DNA from: an uncultured Bacilli bacterium
GTDB lineage: Bacteria > Bacillota_I > Bacilli_A > RF39 > UBA660
Direction of reading: 5' to 3'
DNA: 64,000 nucleotides
Assembly: GCA_944358875.1 (NCBI GenBank)
Contig: CALVRZ010000001.1
Location: 20,214-84,213, forward strand
The position numbers and the translations under genes were made by a program. Shown in pieces: positions 2,892 through 14,927 of this stretch (positions are counted from its first letter, which is position 1; every line of letters starts with the position of its first letter). The notes beneath the pieces are model-generated. The model was not told the DNA's origin, did not search any database, and worked only from the letters and a program-made list of their open reading frames with translations.

Positions 2892-3018
2892 TATCTCACC
2901 AAATTCATTATATCATTTATATTTTATATTGTAAATTATAGAAAAGATAATTAATTTTATGATATCAGAACTTGTATTAAATTATTCTATATATTATAAT
3001 TTATATAAGAGGTGGATT

Positions 3019-3714
3019 ATGAATAGAGAATTAAAAATACCAAATCATGTTGCGATTATATTGGATGGTAATGGTCGGTGGGCAACGGAGAGAGGATTAA
3101 AAAGAAGTAAAGGTCATGATGCAGGATTTAAAAACTTGAAAACACTTAGTGACTATATTTTAACTTGTGGGGTTAAAATACTTAGCGTTTTTGCTTTTTC
3201 GACAGAAAATTTTAAGCGAAGTAAAGAAGAAGTAGATTATTTAATGAATTTATTTGTTACAGGTTTCAAAAAAGAAAGAAATTATTTTGTTGAAAGAAAT
3301 ATTAAGGTTATTTTTTCAGGACGAAAAGTTAATTTAAGAAAAGATGTAGTTAAAGCAATGAATGAACTTGAAAAGATTACTAAAGATGGGACAAAGGGTA
3401 TTCTTAATATTTGTTTAAATTATGGAGGACAAAGTGAGATTGTTGATGCTGTTAATAATATTATTTTAGATGGTGTTAAGGAAGTTGATGAAGAAACTTT
3501 TAGTAAATATTTATATCAAGAACTACCTCCGATTGATTTGATGATTAGAACAAGTGGGGAACTTAGAATTAGTAATTTTATGTTATGGCAACTAGCTTAT
3601 GCAGAATTGTATTTTTCTAATACTTATTTTCCTGATTTTGATGAAAAAGAATTTGATAAGGCATTAGTAGAATATACTAAACGAGACCGGCGATTTGGTG
3701 GTATTAAGAAGTAA
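3019..3714 (+). CDS. uppS: Isoprenyl transferase (undecaprenyl-diphosphate synthase)
   Basis: Canonical N-terminus HVAIILDGNGRWA, plus FSTENFKR, SGELRISNFMLWQ and RRFGG motifs. Start chosen at the ATG preceding MNRELKIP (the ORF track's upstream extension has no RBS). Confidence 0.9.
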   Translation: MNRELKIPNHVAIILDGNGRWATERGLKRSKGHDAGFKNLKTLSDYILTCGVKILSVFAFSTENFKRSKEEVDYLMNLFVTGFKKERNYFVERNIKVIFSGRKVNLRKDVVKAMNELEKITKDGTKGILNICLNYGGQSEIVDAVNNIILDGVKEVDEETFSKYLYQELPPIDLMIRTSGELRISNFMLWQLAYAELYFSNTYFPDFDEKEFDKALVEYTKRDRRFGGIKK

Positions 3715-3716
3715 TT

Positions 3717-3752
3717 AGGTTGTTCGTAAAGACAACCTTTTTTTTATTTCAT
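3717..3752 (+). terminator. Rho-independent terminator after uppS (GGTTGT-TCGTAAA-GACAACC + T8)
   Basis: Perfect 7-bp stem followed by a T-run. Confidence 0.6.
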
Positions 3753-3777
3753 ATAATACCTATGAAGGAGGGATTTG

Positions 3778-4662
3778 ATGGTTAAAACTTATAGTTATGC
3801 TAAAGATAAAGATGTTTTTTTGACAACGCATTTTAAAGTAGGAGAATTTCGAAGTTTTAATGATAAAACGGGGAAGCTTACAACTGATAAAATATTAATT
3901 GATGAAAATTTACCAGTAATGCTTGAAAATCTATATAGCCTTTTGGATAATAAATATGGTCTTAAGTCCATCGTTATTAATAGTGGTTATCGAAGTGATG
4001 ATTTTGAAGAATCTCTATCTGGTGGTGTTAGAGGTGGAACACATACGCAAGGAAAAGGTGCAGATATTGTTTGTTATAATAAAAAAGGAAGTGTTATTAA
4101 TAATAAAGAAGTTTGTTGTTTAGCTGAAGATATAGGATTTAAGGGTATAGGTTATGGTGGAACATATAGCCACGTCGATGTTCGAGATACTAAAAGTTTT
4201 TTTGATGAAACGAATGGAAAAACGGGAATTAGTAGCTTTTATAGTTATTTTAATATAGCTAAGGTAGATGATAATAGTGATACTCTTAATTATAAGATTG
4301 GAGATATAGTGTCTATTAATGGGGTATATGTATCAAGCGACGCTACAGAAAAATTAGTTCCAAAGATAAAGAAGGGAAAAATTACGAAGATAAAGTTAGG
4401 AAGTAAGAATCCATATTTGTTAGATGATGGTGCGATTGGTTGGGTAAATGATAGTGTTATTGTTAGTAATATTTACTTAGCTAATTTATCTTATGATGGC
4501 GATTCTATTGTCGATGCACTTTCTTTAATTGGTGTTGATAGTTCATATAACAATCGCAGTAAACTTGCTAAAGCGAACGGTATTACTAATTATAGTGGTA
4601 CAGCAGAACAAAATCTTAAATTACTTAGTTTACTTAAAAAGGGAGAACTTATTAGTATATAG
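3778..4662 (+). CDS. Peptidase M15-family zinc D,D-/L,D-peptidase-like cell-wall hydrolase with a C-terminal SH3b-like / cell-wall-binding-like region
   Basis: H-x(6)-D in HTQGKGADI plus downstream SHVDVRD (hedgehog/DD-peptidase Zn ligands). RBS GAAGGAGGG. The track's first codon is TTG; ATG at 3778 preferred. Confidence 0.55.
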   Translation: MVKTYSYAKDKDVFLTTHFKVGEFRSFNDKTGKLTTDKILIDENLPVMLENLYSLLDNKYGLKSIVINSGYRSDDFEESLSGGVRGGTHTQGKGADIVCYNKKGSVINNKEVCCLAEDIGFKGIGYGGTYSHVDVRDTKSFFDETNGKTGISSFYSYFNIAKVDDNSDTLNYKIGDIVSINGVYVSSDATEKLVPKIKKGKITKIKLGSKNPYLLDDGAIGWVNDSVIVSNIYLANLSYDGDSIVDALSLIGVDSSYNNRSKLAKANGITNYSGTAEQNLKLLSLLKKGELISI

Positions 4663-4690
4663 TTCTTCTTTTTTTATTGATGTTTAAAAT

Positions 4691-4744
4691 AATGACTTCT
4701 TTTGCTGTGAACTTAGTGACTTTTAATGAGAAATTTGATACAAT
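4691..4744 (+). repeat. 54-bp direct repeat, copy 1 (promoter-like, ends in extended -10 TGATACAAT), upstream of the DUF1016 gene
   Basis: AATGACTTCTTTTGCTGTGAACTTAGTGACTTTTAATGAGAAATTTGATACAAT. Repeated at 5809-5862 with 3 mismatches. Confidence 0.8.
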
Positions 4745-4769
4745 TTAGATTAAAGATTGGAGGTTATTT

Positions 4770-5810
4770 ATGGATAAGAATTTAATATATAATGATAATG
4801 AAATAAATCATATATTTGATAATATCAAAGAATTAGTTATTAATAGTAGGAATAAAGTTTATTCTACTATTAATACTGAGATGCTTAATTTATATTGGAA
4901 TATAGGTAAAGCTATCATGGAGATACAACAAGGTGATGAAAGAGCTAGTTATGGTGAAACGGTACTTGAAAAGTTATCTAAAAAATTAACTGATGAATTT
5001 GGAAAAGGATTTTCTATAATAAATTTAAGAAGAATGAGAAAATTTTATTGTTTATTTCCAATTCGTTCAACAGTGTTGAACGAATTAAGTTGGTCTCATT
5101 ATCTTGAAATAATAAAAATAGAAGAAGAACCTAAAAGAAATTTCTATATAAAAGAAACTATTAATTCGAGATGGAGTGTTCGAGAACTCCAAAGACAAAT
5201 TGGTTCACTATTATATGAAAGACTAACATTATCTACTAATAAGGATAAAATATTAGAACTAGCTTTAAAGGGACATGAATTAAAAAATGGTAAAGATTTA
5301 GTGAAAGATCCTTTTGTTTTAGAATTTTTGGATATTAAGGAAAATACTGATTATTTAGAATCTGATTTAGAAAAAAATATTCTAGAACATTTAAAAGATT
5401 TTTTATTAGAGTTGGGAAAAGGTTTTATGTTTGTTGGTTCTCAGGTAAGATTAACATTAGAAGAAGATCATTTTTATCCGGATTTAGTTTTCTATAATAG
5501 ACTTTTAAAATGTTTTGTAATAATAGATTTAAAAATTGGAAAAGTATCTCATCAGGATATTGGACAAATGCAAATGTATGTTAATTATTATGATAGAGAA
5601 ATAAAAAATGATGACGAAAATCCTACAGTTGGTATTTTATTATCGACATTAAAAAATAAAACGGTTGTTAAATATACATTACCTGAGGATAATAAGAATA
5701 TCTTTTCTTCAAGTTATAAGTTGCATCTTCCTACAGAACAAGAATTAATTGAGGCGGTTGAAGAAGAAAAAAAGAATTTACAATTAAATGAGGAACAAAA
5801 GGTAAAATAA
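4770..5810 (+). CDS. PDDEXK nuclease-domain protein, YhcG/DUF1016 family
   Basis: N-terminal DUF1016 signature (LYWNIGKAI, LSWSHYLEI) and C-terminal PD-(D/E)xK-like region (DLVFYNRLLKCFVIIDLKIGK). Confidence 0.6.
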   Translation: MDKNLIYNDNEINHIFDNIKELVINSRNKVYSTINTEMLNLYWNIGKAIMEIQQGDERASYGETVLEKLSKKLTDEFGKGFSIINLRRMRKFYCLFPIRSTVLNELSWSHYLEIIKIEEEPKRNFYIKETINSRWSVRELQRQIGSLLYERLTLSTNKDKILELALKGHELKNGKDLVKDPFVLEFLDIKENTDYLESDLEKNILEHLKDFLLELGKGFMFVGSQVRLTLEEDHFYPDLVFYNRLLKCFVIIDLKIGKVSHQDIGQMQMYVNYYDREIKNDDENPTVGILLSTLKNKTVVKYTLPEDNKNIFSSSYKLHLPTEQELIEAVEEEKKNLQLNEEQKVK

Positions 5811-7825: not shown

Positions 7826-9565
7826 ATGAAAGAAAAAAGAGGGTTTACTTTAATTGAATTGCTAGCTGTTATATTAATTTTAGGTATTATAATGTCAATT
7901 AGTACTTATTTTATGTTTAATAGTAATAAGGATGCTGAAAATGAAGTTAATTATATTAATGAAAACGGTATTTTAAATTCTGCTTCTTTTTATACAACTG
8001 AATATAATAAAAATTTAATTTGGAATGAAGATGAGAATGCGGCTTGTATTTCAATAAATACACTTATCAATAGGGGGTATTTTGAACGAGATGATATTGT
8101 AGCTAGTGGATATGATAAATATAGTGTTAAAGTTACAGAAGTTGGCGATAAAGTATATAATTATGAATTAGTTAATGATATTTATTGTTATTTTAAAGAT
8201 TTTATTGATCCTACGATATCAATAGATGGTGATAATCCATTAATTAAAAATTATGGCGAAAGTTTTGACTTATGGAGCGATGTTACAGTTGATGGTACTG
8301 GTAGTGATGTTATTTCAAAATATATTTTAAATGGCGATAAGAGAATTAATAACACCAATGAACTTCAAGTTGGTGAATATGTTATTAATTATTATGTAAT
8401 GGATACTTTTGAAAATGAAGCAAAAATGGAAAGACAAGTACATATTATTGATAATGTTTCTCCTACGATTGATTTTGAGACACCAATAGTTAAAGCTTTA
8501 GGTGAAGATTTTGATTTGTGGAGTGATGTTACTGTCAAAGATTTAGAAAGTGGTATTGATAATAATTCAAAAAAAGTAATTAATAAGGATAACAATCAAG
8601 TAATTACTAATACTAAGGATTTAGAAATTGGTACATATAATTTTACTTATTCAGTAAGTGATAAAGTGGGGAATGAGGTTACTAAAGATAGACAGATTCA
8701 AATAATACTTTCTGATAAGAAGTTTGAGTATAAAGGATATGAAGAAGAATTTGTTGTTCCGGCGACAGGATATTATTTTGTGGATGCAAATGGGGCTGGT
8801 ACTAATATAGGCGGTGGCTTAGGTGGTAATGTTACTGGTTATATTTATTTACAACAAGGCGAAGTTTTAAAAATAAAAGTTGGAGGTACGAATGGTTATA
8901 ATGGTGGTGCTAAATCATCAAAGAGTGATGGAATGACAGGTGGTGGTGCAACAACGTTAACTAAAAATGGCAAAACTTTAATTACAGCAGCGGGAGCTGG
9001 TGGACCTACATATTCTTGTAAAACACCTTTATATAAAGTAGATAAACCAAATACTTTTAAATTTCCTGATGACAGTTATTGTTTTCCTTTCGATAAAGAT
9101 GCTAATCTAAATGGTGGTTTAGGTGATGGTTATGGTCCTGGAGGAAATGGTACAAATGGTGGTGGTGGCGCTGGTATTGCTGGTGATTTTGAGACATCTT
9201 GTTTGGGAGCTAATCCGCAATGCGAAGAATATGAACAAAAAATTTGTATTCAATGGGAAGAGGTTTGTGTTGATATACCTGCTTATTGTGTACAGTGGAG
9301 TCCTTTGGGTTACTGTAAAAGATATACTAAGCCTCAGCATATTTGTTACGAGGGCGGTGATTGTGTTAAATGGAATATTATAGAGAGCGTTCGTAATTGT
9401 CAATTTGAATATTATATGTGTACAGCATCAGCAGTTGGTGAACCAGGTAGAGGTGGCAAAAGTAGTGTTTCTAGTGAGGTTATTAATGTTAACTATATTC
9501 ATGGTGAATCAGAAAATTATTATAATGGTGATTTGACAATTAAATATGTAGGTGAGAGTCTATGA
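7826..9565 (+). CDS. Prepilin-type N-terminal cleavage/methylation-domain protein (type IV pilin-like) with two Ig-like repeats (DUF5011-like, DFDLWSDVTV motif) and a Gly-rich then Cys-rich C-terminal region
   Basis: KRGFTLIELLAVILILGIIMSI class-III prepilin motif. Two ~70-aa repeats. GGGLGGN...GGNGTNGGGGAGIAG followed by 12 Cys in ~110 aa. Confidence 0.6.
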   Translation: MKEKRGFTLIELLAVILILGIIMSISTYFMFNSNKDAENEVNYINENGILNSASFYTTEYNKNLIWNEDENAACISINTLINRGYFERDDIVASGYDKYSVKVTEVGDKVYNYELVNDIYCYFKDFIDPTISIDGDNPLIKNYGESFDLWSDVTVDGTGSDVISKYILNGDKRINNTNELQVGEYVINYYVMDTFENEAKMERQVHIIDNVSPTIDFETPIVKALGEDFDLWSDVTVKDLESGIDNNSKKVINKDNNQVITNTKDLEIGTYNFTYSVSDKVGNEVTKDRQIQIILSDKKFEYKGYEEEFVVPATGYYFVDANGAGTNIGGGLGGNVTGYIYLQQGEVLKIKVGGTNGYNGGAKSSKSDGMTGGGATTLTKNGKTLITAAGAGGPTYSCKTPLYKVDKPNTFKFPDDSYCFPFDKDANLNGGLGDGYGPGGNGTNGGGGAGIAGDFETSCLGANPQCEEYEQKICIQWEEVCVDIPAYCVQWSPLGYCKRYTKPQHICYEGGDCVKWNIIESVRNCQFEYYMCTASAVGEPGRGGKSSVSSEVINVNYIHGESENYYNGDLTIKYVGESL

Positions 9566-10218
9566 AAAGAAAAATAGCATATGTTATATTATTTATTTTA
9601 ATTATAATGGTAATCAGTATTATTTGTTTTGTTATGTTTTATCCTAAAGAAAAATTAGAAAATAATAAAACTGTTACTTCTTCAGAAATGATTCAGTATT
9701 TAGAAAGCAGTATGTATATGTATGGTGATTATTTAATTAATGATACTAATTATTTAGATCAATTTAATGTATCTAGGGAATATCATGTATATTTAGAAGA
9801 AATGTTAAATAGTGATAAATTTGATCAACAACCTTTAGAATTTTTAGAATGTGATTATAGTAATACTTATTTAAATATTATTATTAATTTGGAGAATGAT
9901 GATATATCATTAGATGCTATTACTGATTGTTTAGTTAATCAAGACCAATATGGAGTGTTTTATAATAGGCAAAAATTAGAAGATAAATTATTAGAATATG
10001 GTAAGGATATAGCTTCTTATTATGATACAACAGATATGGATGATAGTGCCACTATTGAAATTAATTTAGAACAATTACGGGATGTTTATAATCGTGATAT
10101 TTCAATGTTTATGGAAAATTATGACCTGAAAGAAACTAAAGTTTTGATTTCTTTTAACGAAGATACTAGTGGTTATAGTAATGATTATAAATGTGTTTTA
10201 ACTAAGAAAAATGATTGA
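9562..10218 (+). CDS. Membrane protein (single N-terminal TM) translationally coupled (ATGA overlap) to the pilin-like gene
   Basis: Hydrophobic N-terminus IAYVILFILIIMVISIICFVMF. The stop codon lies inside the 62-bp direct repeat. Confidence 0.45.
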   Translation: MKRKIAYVILFILIIMVISIICFVMFYPKEKLENNKTVTSSEMIQYLESSMYMYGDYLINDTNYLDQFNVSREYHVYLEEMLNSDKFDQQPLEFLECDYSNTYLNIIINLENDDISLDAITDCLVNQDQYGVFYNRQKLEDKLLEYGKDIASYYDTTDMDDSATIEINLEQLRDVYNRDISMFMENYDLKETKVLISFNEDTSGYSNDYKCVLTKKND

Positions 10219-10244
10219 CAATATACTTAATTTTATTATATAAT
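10183..10244. repeat. 62-bp perfect direct repeat, left copy, flanking the IS (target-site duplication)
   Basis: GATTATAAATGTGTTTTAACTAAGAAAAATGATTGACAATATACTTAATTTTATTATATAAT is identical at 12251-12312. It contains TTGACA-N18-TATAAT. Confidence 0.85.
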
Positions 10245-12250
10245 CTCAAATTTGACAGTTGTATAAAGTTAAAAACTCACAAACCCTTTATTTATAAGGG
10301 AATGCGAGTTTTTTTGAATTTAGAAAAATGGCGTACATAATTCTTATTTATTTCATATCTAAAATTTCTTTAATTTTTTTGTAAGTTATTATCTCAGTAT
10401 CAGTATTTATGCCTAAAAAATCATGTAAAGCATCTGTTAAATCATCTCTTGTTTGTATTGGTTCAAATCCTTTTCCATTGTGCTCTAATAATTTCATTTC
10501 TTGTAATTTTGATATTATTTCATTTACAGTATATTTATCATCCAATTGATGTTCTAGATATCTATAGATAAATAATGCTAAGAAGCAAGTAATAAAATGT
10601 CCTTTTATTCTATCTTCGCGTGATAAATGAACTGTCCCAGAATCAAAGTCATCTTTCATAATTCTAAATGATTCTTCAATTTCCCATCTACCATTCATAA
10701 CTTTTATAATTGTTGCAGTATCATCAATTAAATTAGTTGTTATTCCGTATAAACCATTATATTTTTCTTCATTTTTATAAATTTCTTCATCTATGATATA
10801 TTCTATATTACAGGCGATTTCTCCAGCATCGGTTGTTTTAATTTCTTTAATAAATCTTTTAGGATCATTAGGATTTTTACTTATTTTTATTTTTTCAACA
10901 TCTTTTTTCTTTGCTATTTTTTTATTTTTCTTATTAGTTTCTTCAACTAGTTTTCTGGCACGCTCTAATTGATGTAATTTTAAATTGTACTGGTAGACTT
11001 GATATTTAAAAGAAAAAGTTACTATTAAAGTTTGCATTACTGATGCTGTTTCACATTCAATTTCTTTATAAAATATGGTGTTAAAATATTTCTTTTTTAA
11101 TTGTTCGTCTTTTTCAATTTCATCAAGATTATAAACATTCATAAGGTTTCCTAAGATTCGCCATCCTTTTCTATCTAAAGCAAATTCTTGTAATTTATTA
11201 TTTAATTTTTTTATAGATTGAGTAATTACAAAACCACGACCATCTTTGACATTAAATTTTTTAATTTCATCGGTACACATGGCTGCATCAGTACATACAA
11301 TTATGTTACTACCAGCCATGTTATAATTTTTTAAAAACTCTTCCTCAGTAGGAATCATGGTCTTAGTTTCAGAAGTATTTCCAGGATTAATATTCATAGC
11401 AAAAGGATAGCCATCAGCATCCATAAATAATCCCATTTGTACAAGTGGATTAGGTTGATGTTGTTTACTTATTCCATACCTTTGAAAATCATTTTCTTCA
11501 GTGTAGAAAAAATAGTTTGTACAATCATAATAAATAACCTTGTAATTTCTATCGATGACTTTACTACTATTGTCAAATAGTTCTTTTTGAATAGTATTTA
11601 TTTCATGTGATAAATAGGTTAATGTTCTATAAACATGTTGAAGATCAAAGTCATAATTTCCTATAAATTTTCTTGATTGTTCAAATGTTGAAAGTTTAGA
11701 AGAAGGCCATATGATACGAGCATATAGTAAGCATTCAACAACTGCATTTATATCAAATGTAAATTTATATTTATCTTTAATATTTTTACATATTTTATCA
11801 ATACCTAGATCATAATAAATTTTTCTTAAGAAAAAATGTCCAGAATAGAAGCAACGATTTATATTTTTTTCTATTTGTTTATTAGGATTTAAAGTTAAAT
11901 TAACGGGTAATTCTTTTCCATCTTTTATCATCTGATTTAAAGAGTTGATATACTCTTTGACTTTATCCATAGTATTTTCAGTACCAAATCTTTCTTTTAA
12001 GTTTTGGTCATTACCTAAGTTTTCATAAACATAAGTAGATTTTTTTCCATTAAGTTTTTTATAATCAGCAATTATGGCATAGTTATTATTGCTTTTTGTT
12101 GATACAGTTTTGAGTCTCATAAGTGTGGTACCTCCTTACATTATATTAATATTATATCATGTACGGCTTATGTACGCAAGAGTAAAATTAAAAAAAACTA
12201 GGATTTATAAGGCCTAGAACACAATTTTTTATTACAAGTGTCAAAGATGG
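10245..12250 (-). mobile_element. IS1634-family insertion sequence (~2.0 kb) with imperfect terminal inverted repeats (AAATTTGACAGTTGTATAAA / reverse complement ATCTTTGACACTTGTAATAAA)
   Basis: Single long DDE-type transposase ORF. Inverted termini read by eye (~16/21). Immediately bounded by a 62-bp direct repeat. Long variable target duplications are a known property of IS1634. Confidence 0.65.
10348..12120 (-). CDS. IS1634-family transposase
   Basis: N-terminus MRLKTVSTKSNNNYAIIADYKKLNGKKSTYVYENLG follows the IS1634-family pattern (K-x-NG-x-YYxI-x-SY...LG). ~590 aa with DDE-like acidic residues. Confidence 0.6.
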   Translation of the reverse strand: MRLKTVSTKSNNNYAIIADYKKLNGKKSTYVYENLGNDQNLKERFGTENTMDKVKEYINSLNQMIKDGKELPVNLTLNPNKQIEKNINRCFYSGHFFLRKIYYDLGIDKICKNIKDKYKFTFDINAVVECLLYARIIWPSSKLSTFEQSRKFIGNYDFDLQHVYRTLTYLSHEINTIQKELFDNSSKVIDRNYKVIYYDCTNYFFYTEENDFQRYGISKQHQPNPLVQMGLFMDADGYPFAMNINPGNTSETKTMIPTEEEFLKNYNMAGSNIIVCTDAAMCTDEIKKFNVKDGRGFVITQSIKKLNNKLQEFALDRKGWRILGNLMNVYNLDEIEKDEQLKKKYFNTIFYKEIECETASVMQTLIVTFSFKYQVYQYNLKLHQLERARKLVEETNKKNKKIAKKKDVEKIKISKNPNDPKRFIKEIKTTDAGEIACNIEYIIDEEIYKNEEKYNGLYGITTNLIDDTATIIKVMNGRWEIEESFRIMKDDFDSGTVHLSREDRIKGHFITCFLALFIYRYLEHQLDDKYTVNEIISKLQEMKLLEHNGKGFEPIQTRDDLTDALHDFLGINTDTEIITYKKIKEILDMK

Positions 12251-12312
12251 GATTATAAATGTGTTTTAACTAAGAAAAATGATTGACAATATACTTAATT
12301 TTATTATATAAT
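12251..12312. repeat. 62-bp direct repeat, right copy (target-site duplication)
   Basis: Identical to 10183-10244. Confidence 0.85.
12283..12312 (+). promoter_or_regulatory. Sigma-A-type promoter TTGACA-N18-TATAAT within the right repeat copy, positioned to drive the flp-like gene and feoAB
   Basis: Consensus hexamers. A duplicate sits at 10215-10244 just before the IS. Confidence 0.5.
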
Positions 12313-12337: not shown

Positions 12338-12559
12338 ATGATGAGATTGAATAATAAAGGGCAGACTTTAGTTGAATATGTATTGATTATTTCTTTGATT
12401 ACGGTTTTGGCTATTGCTTTAGTTAAGATATTTGGAGGTTATTTGAAGGATTCTGTTACTAAAATGGGTTGTTCAATTGCCGGCAAAGAATATGTTGAGG
12501 GAGAAAAAATTGGTGAAGCTTATTGTTCAGGAGACGAAGATAAGTTGTTTAGTGATTAG
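12338..12559 (+). CDS. Flp/Fap-family pilin-like small protein (class III signal peptide, G/QTLVEY motif)
   Basis: MMRLNNKGQTLVEYVLIISLITVLAIALVKIFG resembles Flp prepilins (G-[AT]-x-x-IEY-[GA]-L-I). RBS AGGAGG. Confidence 0.45.
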   Translation: MMRLNNKGQTLVEYVLIISLITVLAIALVKIFGGYLKDSVTKMGCSIAGKEYVEGEKIGEAYCSGDEDKLFSD

Positions 12560-12626
12560 AACTTTATAGTTCTTTTTTTTTCACATTATAATTGGGCTTT
12601 CATAGATTATTATAGGGAGTGATATA

Positions 12627-12857
12627 ATGTGGATGAAACTTAGTGATATAAAAGTAGGAGAAGAAGCAAGGGTTACAGATATTAGGGTTAATGGTGATAT
12701 TAAGAGAAGACTTTATGATATTGGGCTTATTCCAGGTACTATTATTAAAGCTGTTATGCAAAGTCCTTTTGGAGAGCCTATTGCTTATAACATTAGGGGA
12801 AGTATTATAGCTATTCGAAAAGAAGATACAAGTAAGATTTTGGTTGAGGTGTTATAG
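12627..12857 (+). CDS. feoA: Ferrous iron transport protein A
   Basis: Small SH3-like FeoA (LSDIKVGEEARVTDI...RLYDIGLIPGTII), immediately upstream of feoB. Confidence 0.8.
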   Translation: MWMKLSDIKVGEEARVTDIRVNGDIKRRLYDIGLIPGTIIKAVMQSPFGEPIAYNIRGSIIAIRKEDTSKILVEVL

Positions 12858-14927
12858 ATGACTTATAAGATTGCTTTAGCAGGTAATCCTAATGTTGGTA
12901 AAAGTACTATTTTTAATGCTTTAACGGGTCTTCATCAACATACGGGAAATTGGTCGGGGAAAACGGTTAGTAATGCTAAGGGATTATATTGCTATAATGG
13001 TAATGAATATGAACTTTATGATTTACCAGGAACTTATTCATTAATTGCTCATTCAGAAGAAGAGTTAGTAGCGAGAGATTTTATTTGTTTTGAAGATAGT
13101 GATATGACAATTGTTGTGTGTGATGCAATAATGTTGGAGCGTAATTTGAATTTGATTTTACAAATAATTGAAATCAATCCTCAAGTTTTAGTATGTGTTA
13201 ATTTATTAGATGAGGCCAAGAAGAAAGGAATTGAAATTGATTTATTAAAATTAGAACAGAAATTAGGAGTAAAAGTCGTGGGAACAACGGCTAGAAAGGG
13301 AATTGGGCTTGATAGTTTAAAAGAAAAAGTAGAACAAATGGTTTTAGAGAAAACTAGTATTAAAGGTATTACTATTAATTATGGTAAAGAATTAGAAAAA
13401 AGTATAACGAATATTAGAAATTATTTGGATAAATTAAAGCTTGGTATTAATACGAGATGGTTAGCACTTAGATTATTATGTAATGATAAAGAAGCAGTTA
13501 AATCTTGTTTCAATTATTTAAATTTTGATATAGATAATGATAGTGATCTTTTAAAATTGATAGATAAAGAGGTTAGATTTTTAGATAAGAATAATATTAA
13601 ACGAGATGAAATTAATGAAGTAGTAGTTAATACTATTTTTGATATTTCTAAAATGATTAGTTTAGAAGTCGTTTCTTATAGTAAGATAGACTATGATAAA
13701 AGAGATCGAAAAATAGATCGTATTTTGACTAATAAGATAACGGGTATACCTATAATGATATTATCATTACTTGGTATTTTGTGGCTTACAATTGTGGGTA
13801 GTAATTATCCTTCTAGTTTGCTTTATGATTTTTTATTTAGTTTAGAACAACCTTTATATAATTTACTTAGTTTTCTTCCTTCTTTTTTACAAGATATGTT
13901 AGTTTTGGGAATGTATAGGACAGTAGCATGGGTAGTATCAGTTATGTTACCACCGATGGCCATCTTTTTTCCTTTATTTACGATTTTAGAAGATTTGGGT
14001 TATTTGCCAAGAATTGCTTTTAATTTAGATAAATTTTTTAAGAAATGTTCTTCTTGTGGAAAGCAGGCTTTATGTATGTGTATGGGTTTTGGTTGTAATG
14101 CTGTTGGAGTAACAGGAAGTAGGATTATTGATTCAAAAAGAGAAAGATTAATTGCTATTTTGACTAATTGCTTTGTTCCTTGTAATGGAAGATTTCCAAT
14201 GATCATTGCTATTATTACAATGTTTTTTGTAGGTTTTAATACAGGAATAGTAAGTAGCTTGACTAGTGCTTTATTTCTTCTTTTGGTAATACTACTTGGA
14301 ATTGGGATGACTTTTTTAGTTTCTTGGATTTTGTCAAAAACTTTATTAAAAGGTGAACCTACTTCTTTTGTTTTAGAATTACCTCCTTATCGAAGACCCC
14401 AGATATTAAAAGTTATTGGAAGAAGTATCGTGGATAGAACACTACATATTTTAGGAAGAGCTATCGCGGTTGCTGCTCCGTGTGGTATTATTGTTTTTCT
14501 TCTTTCTAATATTATGATTGATGGTAATAATATTCTTAGTATCATAGCAAATTATTTGGATCCACTTGCTGATTTAATTGGTCTTGATGGAGTTATAATA
14601 CTTGCTTTTATTTTAGGATTTCCGGCGAATGAAATAGTTATACCAATCATGTTAATGATGTATTTAAATACAGGAACTTTGGTAGAATATGATAGTTTAG
14701 AATCTTTAAAAACCATTTTATTAAATAATGGATGGACGTGGTTGACGGCGGTTTGTGTAGTGGTCTTCTCGTTACTACATTTTCCTTGTTCGACAACTTG
14801 TTTAACGATAAAGAAAGAAACTAACTCTTGGAAATGGGCAATATTAGGATTTATTATACCTACGATGGTGGGAATTCTAATGTGTTTTATAATAACAACA
14901 GTAGTAAGACTACTTGGTTTGGTTTAA
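12858..14927 (+). CDS. feoB: Ferrous iron transport protein B
   Basis: G-protein domain IALAGNPNVGKSTIFNALTG, DLPGTYSL, plus a polytopic membrane domain. Confidence 0.9.
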   Translation: MTYKIALAGNPNVGKSTIFNALTGLHQHTGNWSGKTVSNAKGLYCYNGNEYELYDLPGTYSLIAHSEEELVARDFICFEDSDMTIVVCDAIMLERNLNLILQIIEINPQVLVCVNLLDEAKKKGIEIDLLKLEQKLGVKVVGTTARKGIGLDSLKEKVEQMVLEKTSIKGITINYGKELEKSITNIRNYLDKLKLGINTRWLALRLLCNDKEAVKSCFNYLNFDIDNDSDLLKLIDKEVRFLDKNNIKRDEINEVVVNTIFDISKMISLEVVSYSKIDYDKRDRKIDRILTNKITGIPIMILSLLGILWLTIVGSNYPSSLLYDFLFSLEQPLYNLLSFLPSFLQDMLVLGMYRTVAWVVSVMLPPMAIFFPLFTILEDLGYLPRIAFNLDKFFKKCSSCGKQALCMCMGFGCNAVGVTGSRIIDSKRERLIAILTNCFVPCNGRFPMIIAIITMFFVGFNTGIVSSLTSALFLLLVILLGIGMTFLVSWILSKTLLKGEPTSFVLELPPYRRPQILKVIGRSIVDRTLHILGRAIAVAAPCGIIVFLLSNIMIDGNNILSIIANYLDPLADLIGLDGVIILAFILGFPANEIVIPIMLMMYLNTGTLVEYDSLESLKTILLNNGWTWLTAVCVVVFSLLHFPCSTTCLTIKKETNSWKWAILGFIIPTMVGILMCFIITTVVRLLGLV

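Follow-up and report, generated by a model that had tools for sequence, protein, structure and literature searches.

The IS1634 family of insertion sequences (ISs) is characterized by a DDE-type transposase that has a long N3-C1 spacer and lacks the complete Y-(2)-R-(3)-E-(6)-K motif of IS4, and its members normally generate target duplications of 5-6 bp (PMC2266710). For example, ISGka5 from Geobacillus kaustophilus and ISPfe2 from Paracoccus ferrooxidans, which are similar in size and carry a single DDE transposase without YREK, make 6-bp duplications (PMC8024623, PMC3281130). [quoted passage not shown] Here we analyze a relative of these elements in a 64,000-nucleotide stretch of DNA (hereafter the window) from an uncultured Bacilli bacterium of the RF39 lineage (GenBank assembly GCA_944358875.1, contig CALVRZ010000001.1, positions 20,214 to 84,213), where an IS of about 2 kb lies between two copies of a long direct repeat, directly upstream of a flp-like gene and feoAB. 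We consider it very likely that this is an active IS1634-family element that transposed into the flp-like/feoAB promoter, following a rule, common to a whole clade, that anchors one of its ends to a promoter. An earlier note on this DNA, made from the letters alone, had read the repeat as a target-site duplication containing a promoter; that interpretation was supported with minor corrections but understated, since the promoter, which it had treated as incidental to the duplication, appears to be the targeting rule of this IS lineage.

The identical 62-nt direct repeats occupy positions 10183-10244 and 12251-12312, 2006 nt apart, and enclose a single long open reading frame (ORF), a DDE-type transposase of 590 amino acids on the minus strand (10348-12120), all of which agrees with the earlier description. 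The ends of the element form an imperfect inverted repeat, as had also been noticed, with the common core TTTGACA[G/C]TTGTA, a motif found twice in the window (at the two IS ends) vs. 0.01 matches expected. A plain inverted-repeat finder was misled by internal A/T-rich repeats and was replaced by a tip rule: in about 100 relatives, both tips consist of C, 5 nt and TTTGACA. The corresponding tips in the window are CTCAAATTTGACAG at the transposase-distal end and, as reverse complement, CCCATCTTTGACAC at the transposase-proximal end. The distal terminal inverted repeat, CTCAAATTTGACAGTTGTAT, lies at 10245-10264 on the plus strand with its tip adjoining a -10 hexamer, and the proximal one, whose reverse complement is CCCATCTTTGACACTTGTAA, lies at 12232-12251 on the minus strand and has G 12251 as its last base. 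Because both tips of the relatives have this form, G 12251 is the terminal base of the IS, and therefore the element is 2007 bp long (10245-12251, minus strand) and the duplication is 61 bp, with its copies at 10184-10244 and 12252-12312 on the plus strand. The 62-bp duplication of the earlier note thus holds as long and perfect, but it consists of 61 bp proper plus one ambiguous matching base, G 10183. About half of the upstream junctions in relatives come after G, and the corresponding G lies outside the repeat in several of them (L024, L030), so that the extra match at 10183 reflects either a mild target preference or chance.

The assignment to the IS1634 family made in the earlier note is borne out by the family profile. 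The transposase scores 312.1 bits against NCBIfam NF033559 (cutoff 100, residues 53-572) and far under the cutoffs of the IS4 and IS701 models, and Pfam DDE_Tnp_1 matches residues 212-517. Judging from its sequence, it fits the DDE type with a long N3-C1 spacer and an incomplete YREK motif, reading N476-G-R-W479-E-I-E-E483-S-F-R-I-M-K489 around the conserved E, with Y and R replaced. The size of the element, its single ORF and its inverted repeats starting with C are those of the family (1.5-2.0 kb, one ORF, terminal C), and IS1634 and IS1549 likewise have a single ORF, ~1.9-2.0 kb and a terminal C. However, the 61-bp duplication is far from the family norm of 5-6 bp; this does not exclude membership, as the same departure is already on record for IS1634 and IS1549. 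The element is therefore a new member of the IS1634 family, with long, variable duplications as in IS1634 and IS1549 and unlike ISGka5 and ISPfe2, which make short, fixed 5-6 bp duplications in AT-rich tracts and insert into genes such as sacB (PMC2266710, PMC8024623, PMC3281130).

Exact-protein look-ups led to contigs from other chicken-gut assemblies, the closest genome record being a metagenome-assembled genome (MAG) of 'Candidatus Onthocola stercoravium', and these contigs supply the comparison with empty sites that the earlier note had proposed as a check. Six IS-free contigs (L012, L013, L014, L017, L018 and L019) carry one copy of the 62-mer each, with the 218-amino-acid gene upstream of the IS in the window standing directly before the flp-like gene, and the repeat is therefore a true target-site duplication. 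Two other readings of the repeat have a probability close to nil. If it were older than the IS, or if TATAAT were the outer end of the element, the empty alleles would be hard to understand, since all six have one 62-mer including TATAAT and continue directly into the flp-like leader; moreover, the hexamer closes the right-hand duplication copy in 25/25 duplication-bearing sites among the relatives described below, where non-IS DNA follows it. Because it is present in right-hand copies and in empty sites, the hexamer belongs to the target DNA, not to the element. The other reading, a repeat created by misjoined reads across a repeated element, gains some color from the short-read metagenome contigs of this IS, which are often chimeric. 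The same filled site, however, is found with the same junctions in three independent assemblies (the window, L002 and L015) and is therefore no assembly artifact, and analogous duplications occur in circular MAGs from long reads (HiFi/metaFlye) and in complete plasmids and genomes.

The earlier suggestion of a recent event also agrees with these contigs. Over 2 kb, the other IS copies show 0-3 nt of difference from the one in the window; the element has thus been active recently, and some assemblies have the insertion while others lack it. Among the other copies of exactly this IS (L001-L010), no duplications were seen in contigs that are short-read, in part chimeric, or too short in their flanks. 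In two of them, L001 and L003 (IS at 2898-4904, reverse strand of each locus), the distal flank is common while the proximal flanks differ, which points to chimeric short-read assembly across the 2-kb repeat or, alternatively, to IS-mediated recombination.

For IS1634 and IS1549 we found no target rule in the literature, whereas in the present case the -10 hexamer of a promoter fixes the place of one junction. As the earlier note stated, the repeat holds the 3' end of the upstream ORF (36 nt) and a TTGACA-N18-TATAAT promoter (12/12 consensus match), and the site fits a sigma-A promoter (TTGACA, a spacer of 17 +/- 1, TATAAT, optionally TG or TRTG, and a gene downstream). The distal tip adjoins the final T of the -10 hexamer on its 3' side, at promoter position -7/-6, and the proximal end lies 61 nt upstream. 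In the copies of the window IS that were aligned first, a -10-like hexamer adjoins the tip on every transposase-distal flank.

We extended the comparison to 107 distinct insertion sites of the window IS and its relatives (transposase identity 36-100%) from gut MAGs, metagenomes and Lactobacillales plasmids. The sites came from species-representative genomes, 80 metagenome loci with transposase identities of 40-47% (from termite gut, digesters, rumen and elsewhere), the exact-protein look-ups and plasmid records; tips were placed by inverted-repeat geometry alone, and the placement was validated via duplication boundaries and empty sites. The six bases at the distal tip are TATAAT in 45/107 sites, match it in at least five of six positions in 80/107, and read TANNNT in 85/107; per position, the window as background has 4.2% TANNNT and 0.2% TATAAT (binomial p about 1e-95). 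Counted back from the tip, the position table shows TTG (-29 to -27), an A-rich position -24, T-R-T-G (-11 to -8) and T-A-T-A-A-T (-6 to -1). This pattern corresponds in turn to a -35 box, a spacer of 17 nt, the '-16' TRTG motif of Gram-positive bacteria and a -10 box. The TRTG -16 region of Gram-positive promoters is said to have been reported by Voskuil and Chambliss in 1998.

Gene context and orientation follow the same pattern. Once the IS is taken out in silico, 11 of 15 duplication-bearing sites have a co-directional ORF beginning 16-70 nt beyond the hexamer, and 12 of the 15 insertion points fall between genes. The orientation is constant: the promoter reads into the transposase-distal end, so that targeted promoter and transposase gene are antiparallel. 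The second junction is found 13 to ~625 bp upstream of the distal one, and the promoter is therefore duplicated by each insertion. P0201-type ISs (L136-L145) from different samples represent independent hits on one promoter region, a hot spot where the junctions give duplications of 65, 71 and 73 bp. Individual records show the same arrangement, e.g., a copy in Carnobacterium maltaromaticum follows TTGACA-N17-TATATT and one in Enterococcus cecorum follows TTGAAA-N17-TAAAAT. In Ligilactobacillus salivarius plasmid pBNS11-37kb (L130, NZ_CP089852.1, 13,9xx-16,0xx), the IS is located immediately behind TGCTATAAT and upstream of ermCL, the erm(C) leader, at a hexamer whose place we take to be that expected for the erm(C)/ermCL promoter.

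A simpler explanation would be that there is no promoter targeting, and that the element inserts beside any TATAAT-like or AT-rich sequence while selection purges insertions in genes. In the window, 81% of the TATAAT-like hexamers lie in coding sequence, so that much pruning would be needed if the hexamer alone were the target. As a stringent control, we used the intergenic TATAAT-like hexamers of the window. Even against these, a -35 TTG at a spacer of 16-18 nt is about 4-fold enriched next to the IS (39/98 vs. 30/325, i.e., 40% vs. 9%; Fisher p 3e-11), and a TG-extended -10 is found in 25/98 vs. 35/325 (Fisher p 8e-4). In addition, selection should disfavor real promoters rather than favor them, and many of the insertions are recent and polymorphic. 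We thus regard selection without targeting as improbable, although purifying selection could contribute to the promoter enrichment.

Besides this possible contribution of selection, other observations count against a promoter-anchored rule. The flanking hexamers are taken as promoters on the strength of their sequence and position relative to genes. Most sites come from short-read metagenome contigs, and only 25 of the 84 sites with two flanks show a duplication, the others having short flanks or looking chimeric. Copies in Allobaculum (tips CTCTAGTTTTGCAG) have flanks that are only weakly -10-like, with the T at -1 kept. Mycoplasmopsis gallopavonis NCTC10186 contains two IS1634-type elements with tips CCTGAGTTTCCAAGTTG, an architecture common with the window clade, and among its seven copies there are no -10-like distal flanks, at least one copy being inside an ABC-transporter gene. 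An extension of the -10 anchor to the classical Mycoplasma-type elements was accordingly rejected. We conclude that the -10 anchor is a property of a large, mostly gut-associated clade of Bacillota, while long duplications are broader: the M. gallopavonis elements duplicate 53, 108, 125 and 400 bp without the anchor, and anchoring alone therefore does not explain long duplications. Within that clade, the sequence statistics strongly support promoter anchoring as a rule of this part of the IS1634 family and not an accident.

The earlier note had pointed to the long, variable duplications reported for IS1634, and the copies and relatives surveyed here, with lengths from 13 to ~625 bp, behave in this way. 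Reliable flanks were available from long-read circular MAGs (HiFi/metaFlye), complete plasmids and one isolate genome, and a clean duplication flanks 11 of the 13 copies from long-read or complete records. The duplications measure 66 and 119 bp in OZ007022.1; 119, 120, 240 and ~624 bp for one element in OZ007038.1; 100, 122 and 347 bp in Allobaculum sp. JKK-2023; 13 bp in L. salivarius pBNS11-37kb; and 308/433 bp in a Carnobacterium maltaromaticum megaplasmid, where the two copies are identical but for one 125-nt indel. Metagenome contigs add 28, 41, 54, 65, 71, 73, 105, 115, 116, 133 and ~181 bp. Long and widely differing repeats are thus found among copies of one element in OZ007038.1, Allobaculum and M. 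gallopavonis. Six duplications from three IS clades cluster at 115-122 nt (among the 25 duplication-bearing sites). A periodicity of about 60 nt in the lengths was suggestive at n=17 but was rejected, as it became weaker after 100, 347, 433 and 13 were added.

As to how the element might find its promoters, all determinants of sigma-A promoters are enriched at the correct spacing, which favors a promoter bound by the RNA polymerase holoenzyme, and we tentatively propose, at somewhat less than an even chance, that the target is recognized as a functional promoter bound or opened by the holoenzyme. A possible but rather doubtful alternative is that the transposase itself reads the -10-like hexamer, and perhaps the -35 box through the domain that binds TTTGACA, with no role for RNA polymerase. 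The junction is exact to the nucleotide, and the T at -1 is kept where the hexamer is otherwise weak, as in Allobaculum, both of which would suit such a direct readout. On the other hand, the enrichment of TG/TRTG and -35 at sigma-A spacing would require the transposase to copy the whole specificity of sigma-A; sites without a -35 often carry TG, as real promoters do; and no matching DNA-reading domain was recognized.

The holoenzyme step faces difficulties of its own. TTGACA is itself present in both tips of the IS, 7 nt from the end, so that the end-binding domain might also read -35 boxes. The template strand at -7/-6 is buried in the open complex, which is awkward for capture through RNA polymerase. 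In the N-terminal 195 residues of the transposase, no PDB counterpart and no sigma-like, RNA-polymerase-binding or other known fold was detected. Nevertheless, we put forward, more tentatively still than holoenzyme recognition as such, that the clade targets promoters occupied or opened by sigma-A holoenzyme, with one end going to -7/-6 and the other to the next accessible upstream DNA, and that these might be the first case of bacterial transposons that are tethered to the machinery of transcription initiation.

Irrespective of how the target is found, the strand transfers can be sketched from what is standard for DDE enzymes. The 3'-OH of the distal end would attack the template strand between -6 and -7, and the 3'-OH of the proximal end would attack the non-template strand 13 to ~625 nt upstream. 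Repair of the staggered cuts duplicated 61 nt at the window site, so that the end of the upstream gene and the full promoter of the downstream operon both survive. Since the strand-transfer positions are so variable, the two transfers would not be geometrically coupled, unlike those of Tn5. Tn5/IS50, a member of the IS4 family, has a fixed 9-bp duplication and little target specificity, and the window transposase differs from it in the N-terminal 195 residues described above. From fold similarity, the transposase is assigned a Tn5-like DDE fold, and it probably works by cut-and-paste; a replicative or one-ended pathway instead is possible.

The consequences for the neighboring genes can be read from the arrangement around the IS. 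Promoter copy 1 (10215-10244, plus strand) reads into the IS, and promoter copy 2 (12283-12312, plus strand), which likewise matches TTGACA-N18-TATAAT at 12/12 positions and is followed by AGGAGG, ends 25 nt before the ATG of the flp-like gene, i.e., at the native distance, and would drive the flp-like gene and feoAB. The -35 and -10 hexamers of this promoter are invariant in all alleles, including those without the pilin-like genes that lie upstream in the window, which encode 579 and 218 amino acids. It is therefore the own promoter of the flp-like/feoAB operon, and no operon was split by the IS, contrary to the view that the insertion had separated a pilin-like operon from these genes. Upstream, the 218-amino-acid ORF (9562-10218, plus strand), to which no function was assigned, is intact, its stop codon (10216-10218) and last 36 nt being within the left repeat copy.

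Inside the distal tip, 27-70 nt from its end, folding predicts a bidirectional intrinsic-terminator hairpin (10271-10320, both strands), with -20.9 kcal/mol and a z of -6.6 on the minus strand and -15.2 kcal/mol followed by U7 on the plus strand. A hairpin of different sequence is present at the equivalent place in 12/12 relatives folded. The simple terminator scanner called no terminator at this hairpin, because its stem has internal mismatches, as seen on folding. An Rfam search of the IS for structured RNA gave no match at E up to 0.1, and a structured RNA was rejected; the conserved hairpin behaves as a terminator. The hairpin would end the transposase mRNA, and it should also stop transcripts from promoter copy 1, which would fire into this conserved structure some 70 nt within the element. 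The earlier note had proposed that an outward-facing promoter copy could change expression of the neighbors; instead, the IS-facing copy points inward into the terminator, and little change is expected. With the insertion, expression of the neighbors would thus be largely unchanged and read-through from upstream lost, and promoter copy 1 would give rise to a ~70-nt transcript.

The transposase gene has its own candidate promoter, read from the sequence as TTGCGT-N17-TATAAT (12151-12179, minus strand) and followed by AAGGAGG and ATG. A subterminal motif, GCGTAC (GAGTAAT in some clades), is conserved 80-95 nt inside both IS ends (10331-10336 and 12163-12178 in the window), and its proximal-end copy overlaps the -35 of this candidate promoter. 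The motif could be a second binding site, for the transposase or a regulator.

Downstream of the right-hand copy lie the flp-like gene (73 amino acids, 12338-12559), feoA (12627-12857) and feoB (12858-14927), all on the plus strand (12338-14927). The flp-like protein matches Pfam Flp_Fap at E=3e-4 and 21 bits, below the cutoff of 32.2, and has a weak class III signal-peptide match as well, so that its name is a lead and not an assignment. On the other side, in the block at 7826-10218, the 579-amino-acid prepilin-like gene encodes an N-terminal methylation motif, immunoglobulin-like domains and a Gly/Cys-rich C-terminus. Together with the 218-amino-acid gene, it is absent in three alleles (L011, L016 and L020, around 4700-5000) that keep the flp-like/feoAB promoter, and the block is a strain-variable surface-protein cassette.

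Several records of the survey deserve mention in their own right. The IS of pBNS11-37kb, whose transposase is 36% identical to that of the window, also occurs in Enterococcus cecorum and L. johnsonii; its 13-bp duplication is too short to include the -35 region, and poxtA, fexB and vat(E) are further genes of this plasmid. In L146 and L148, the distal flank GTTGTCAAATTGCGTAATTTTTTGTATCATAAT is similar to the transposase promoter region in a different IS1634-family element and may represent a nested insertion into the promoter of a sibling element. The M. gallopavonis NCTC10186 record (L156-L158, NZ_LR215032.1), listed in PLSDB as 'plasmid 2', has a length of 410 kb and numerous IS3 and IS1634 copies, along with ribosomal protein, tRNA-synthetase, secA and topA genes, and resembles a piece of a chromosome more than a plasmid.

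Promoter-anchored insertion appears to be a previously undescribed way for a bacterial transposon to choose harmless sites. Neither full-text searches nor the family review contained a report of it; the original papers on IS1634 and IS1549 from 1998-99 were outside the search, so that a prior mention is possible, which tempers the claim of novelty. Other bacterial elements are also known to use recurrent non-coding landing signals as safe sites, including IS1397 and ISKpn1 in repetitive extragenic palindromic (REP) sequences, class C group II introns after terminators, and Tn7 at attTn7, but their enzymes and signals differ from those considered here. We know of none among them that uses a -10 element or regenerates its target by a long duplication. 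The nearest functional analog, on present comparison, is Ty3 of yeast, which inserts with nucleotide precision at RNA polymerase III start sites via TFIIIB and spares coding sequence. The likeness is one of outcome only: Ty3 is a eukaryotic long terminal repeat retroelement with 5-bp duplications whose integrase is tethered to a transcription factor, whereas tethering is hypothetical for the window IS, and homology between the two is limited to the RNase H-like core.

For this IS lineage, the landing site is predictable to the nucleotide, behind a -10 box and antiparallel to the gene. Experiments are feasible because relatives occur in cultured Lactobacillales and Erysipelotrichaceae, and a multiresistance plasmid carries such an element within the erm(C) promoter. 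If RNA polymerase is the landmark, the insertions would be a natural in vivo marker of active promoters, and the element a possible tool for promoter-directed integration; the IS-adjacent hexamers meanwhile offer about 100 free promoter calls for the annotation of uncultured Bacilli. For the family, an anchored end combined with a free end provides a concrete model for the 8-514 bp duplications of IS1634 and IS1549, and the contrast with Mycoplasmopsis shows which part of it is general. The long duplication also makes functional sense, because the promoter is regenerated and both neighbors are spared. The net effect would be a nearly harmless insertion site in small, gene-dense genomes, and such neighbor-sparing insertion suits genomes of 1.5 Mb that are 86% coding. 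If tethering to the holoenzyme is true, this clade would be a prokaryotic counterpart of Ty3 and would give the first mechanistic handle on long duplications that have been without a model since 1998-99.

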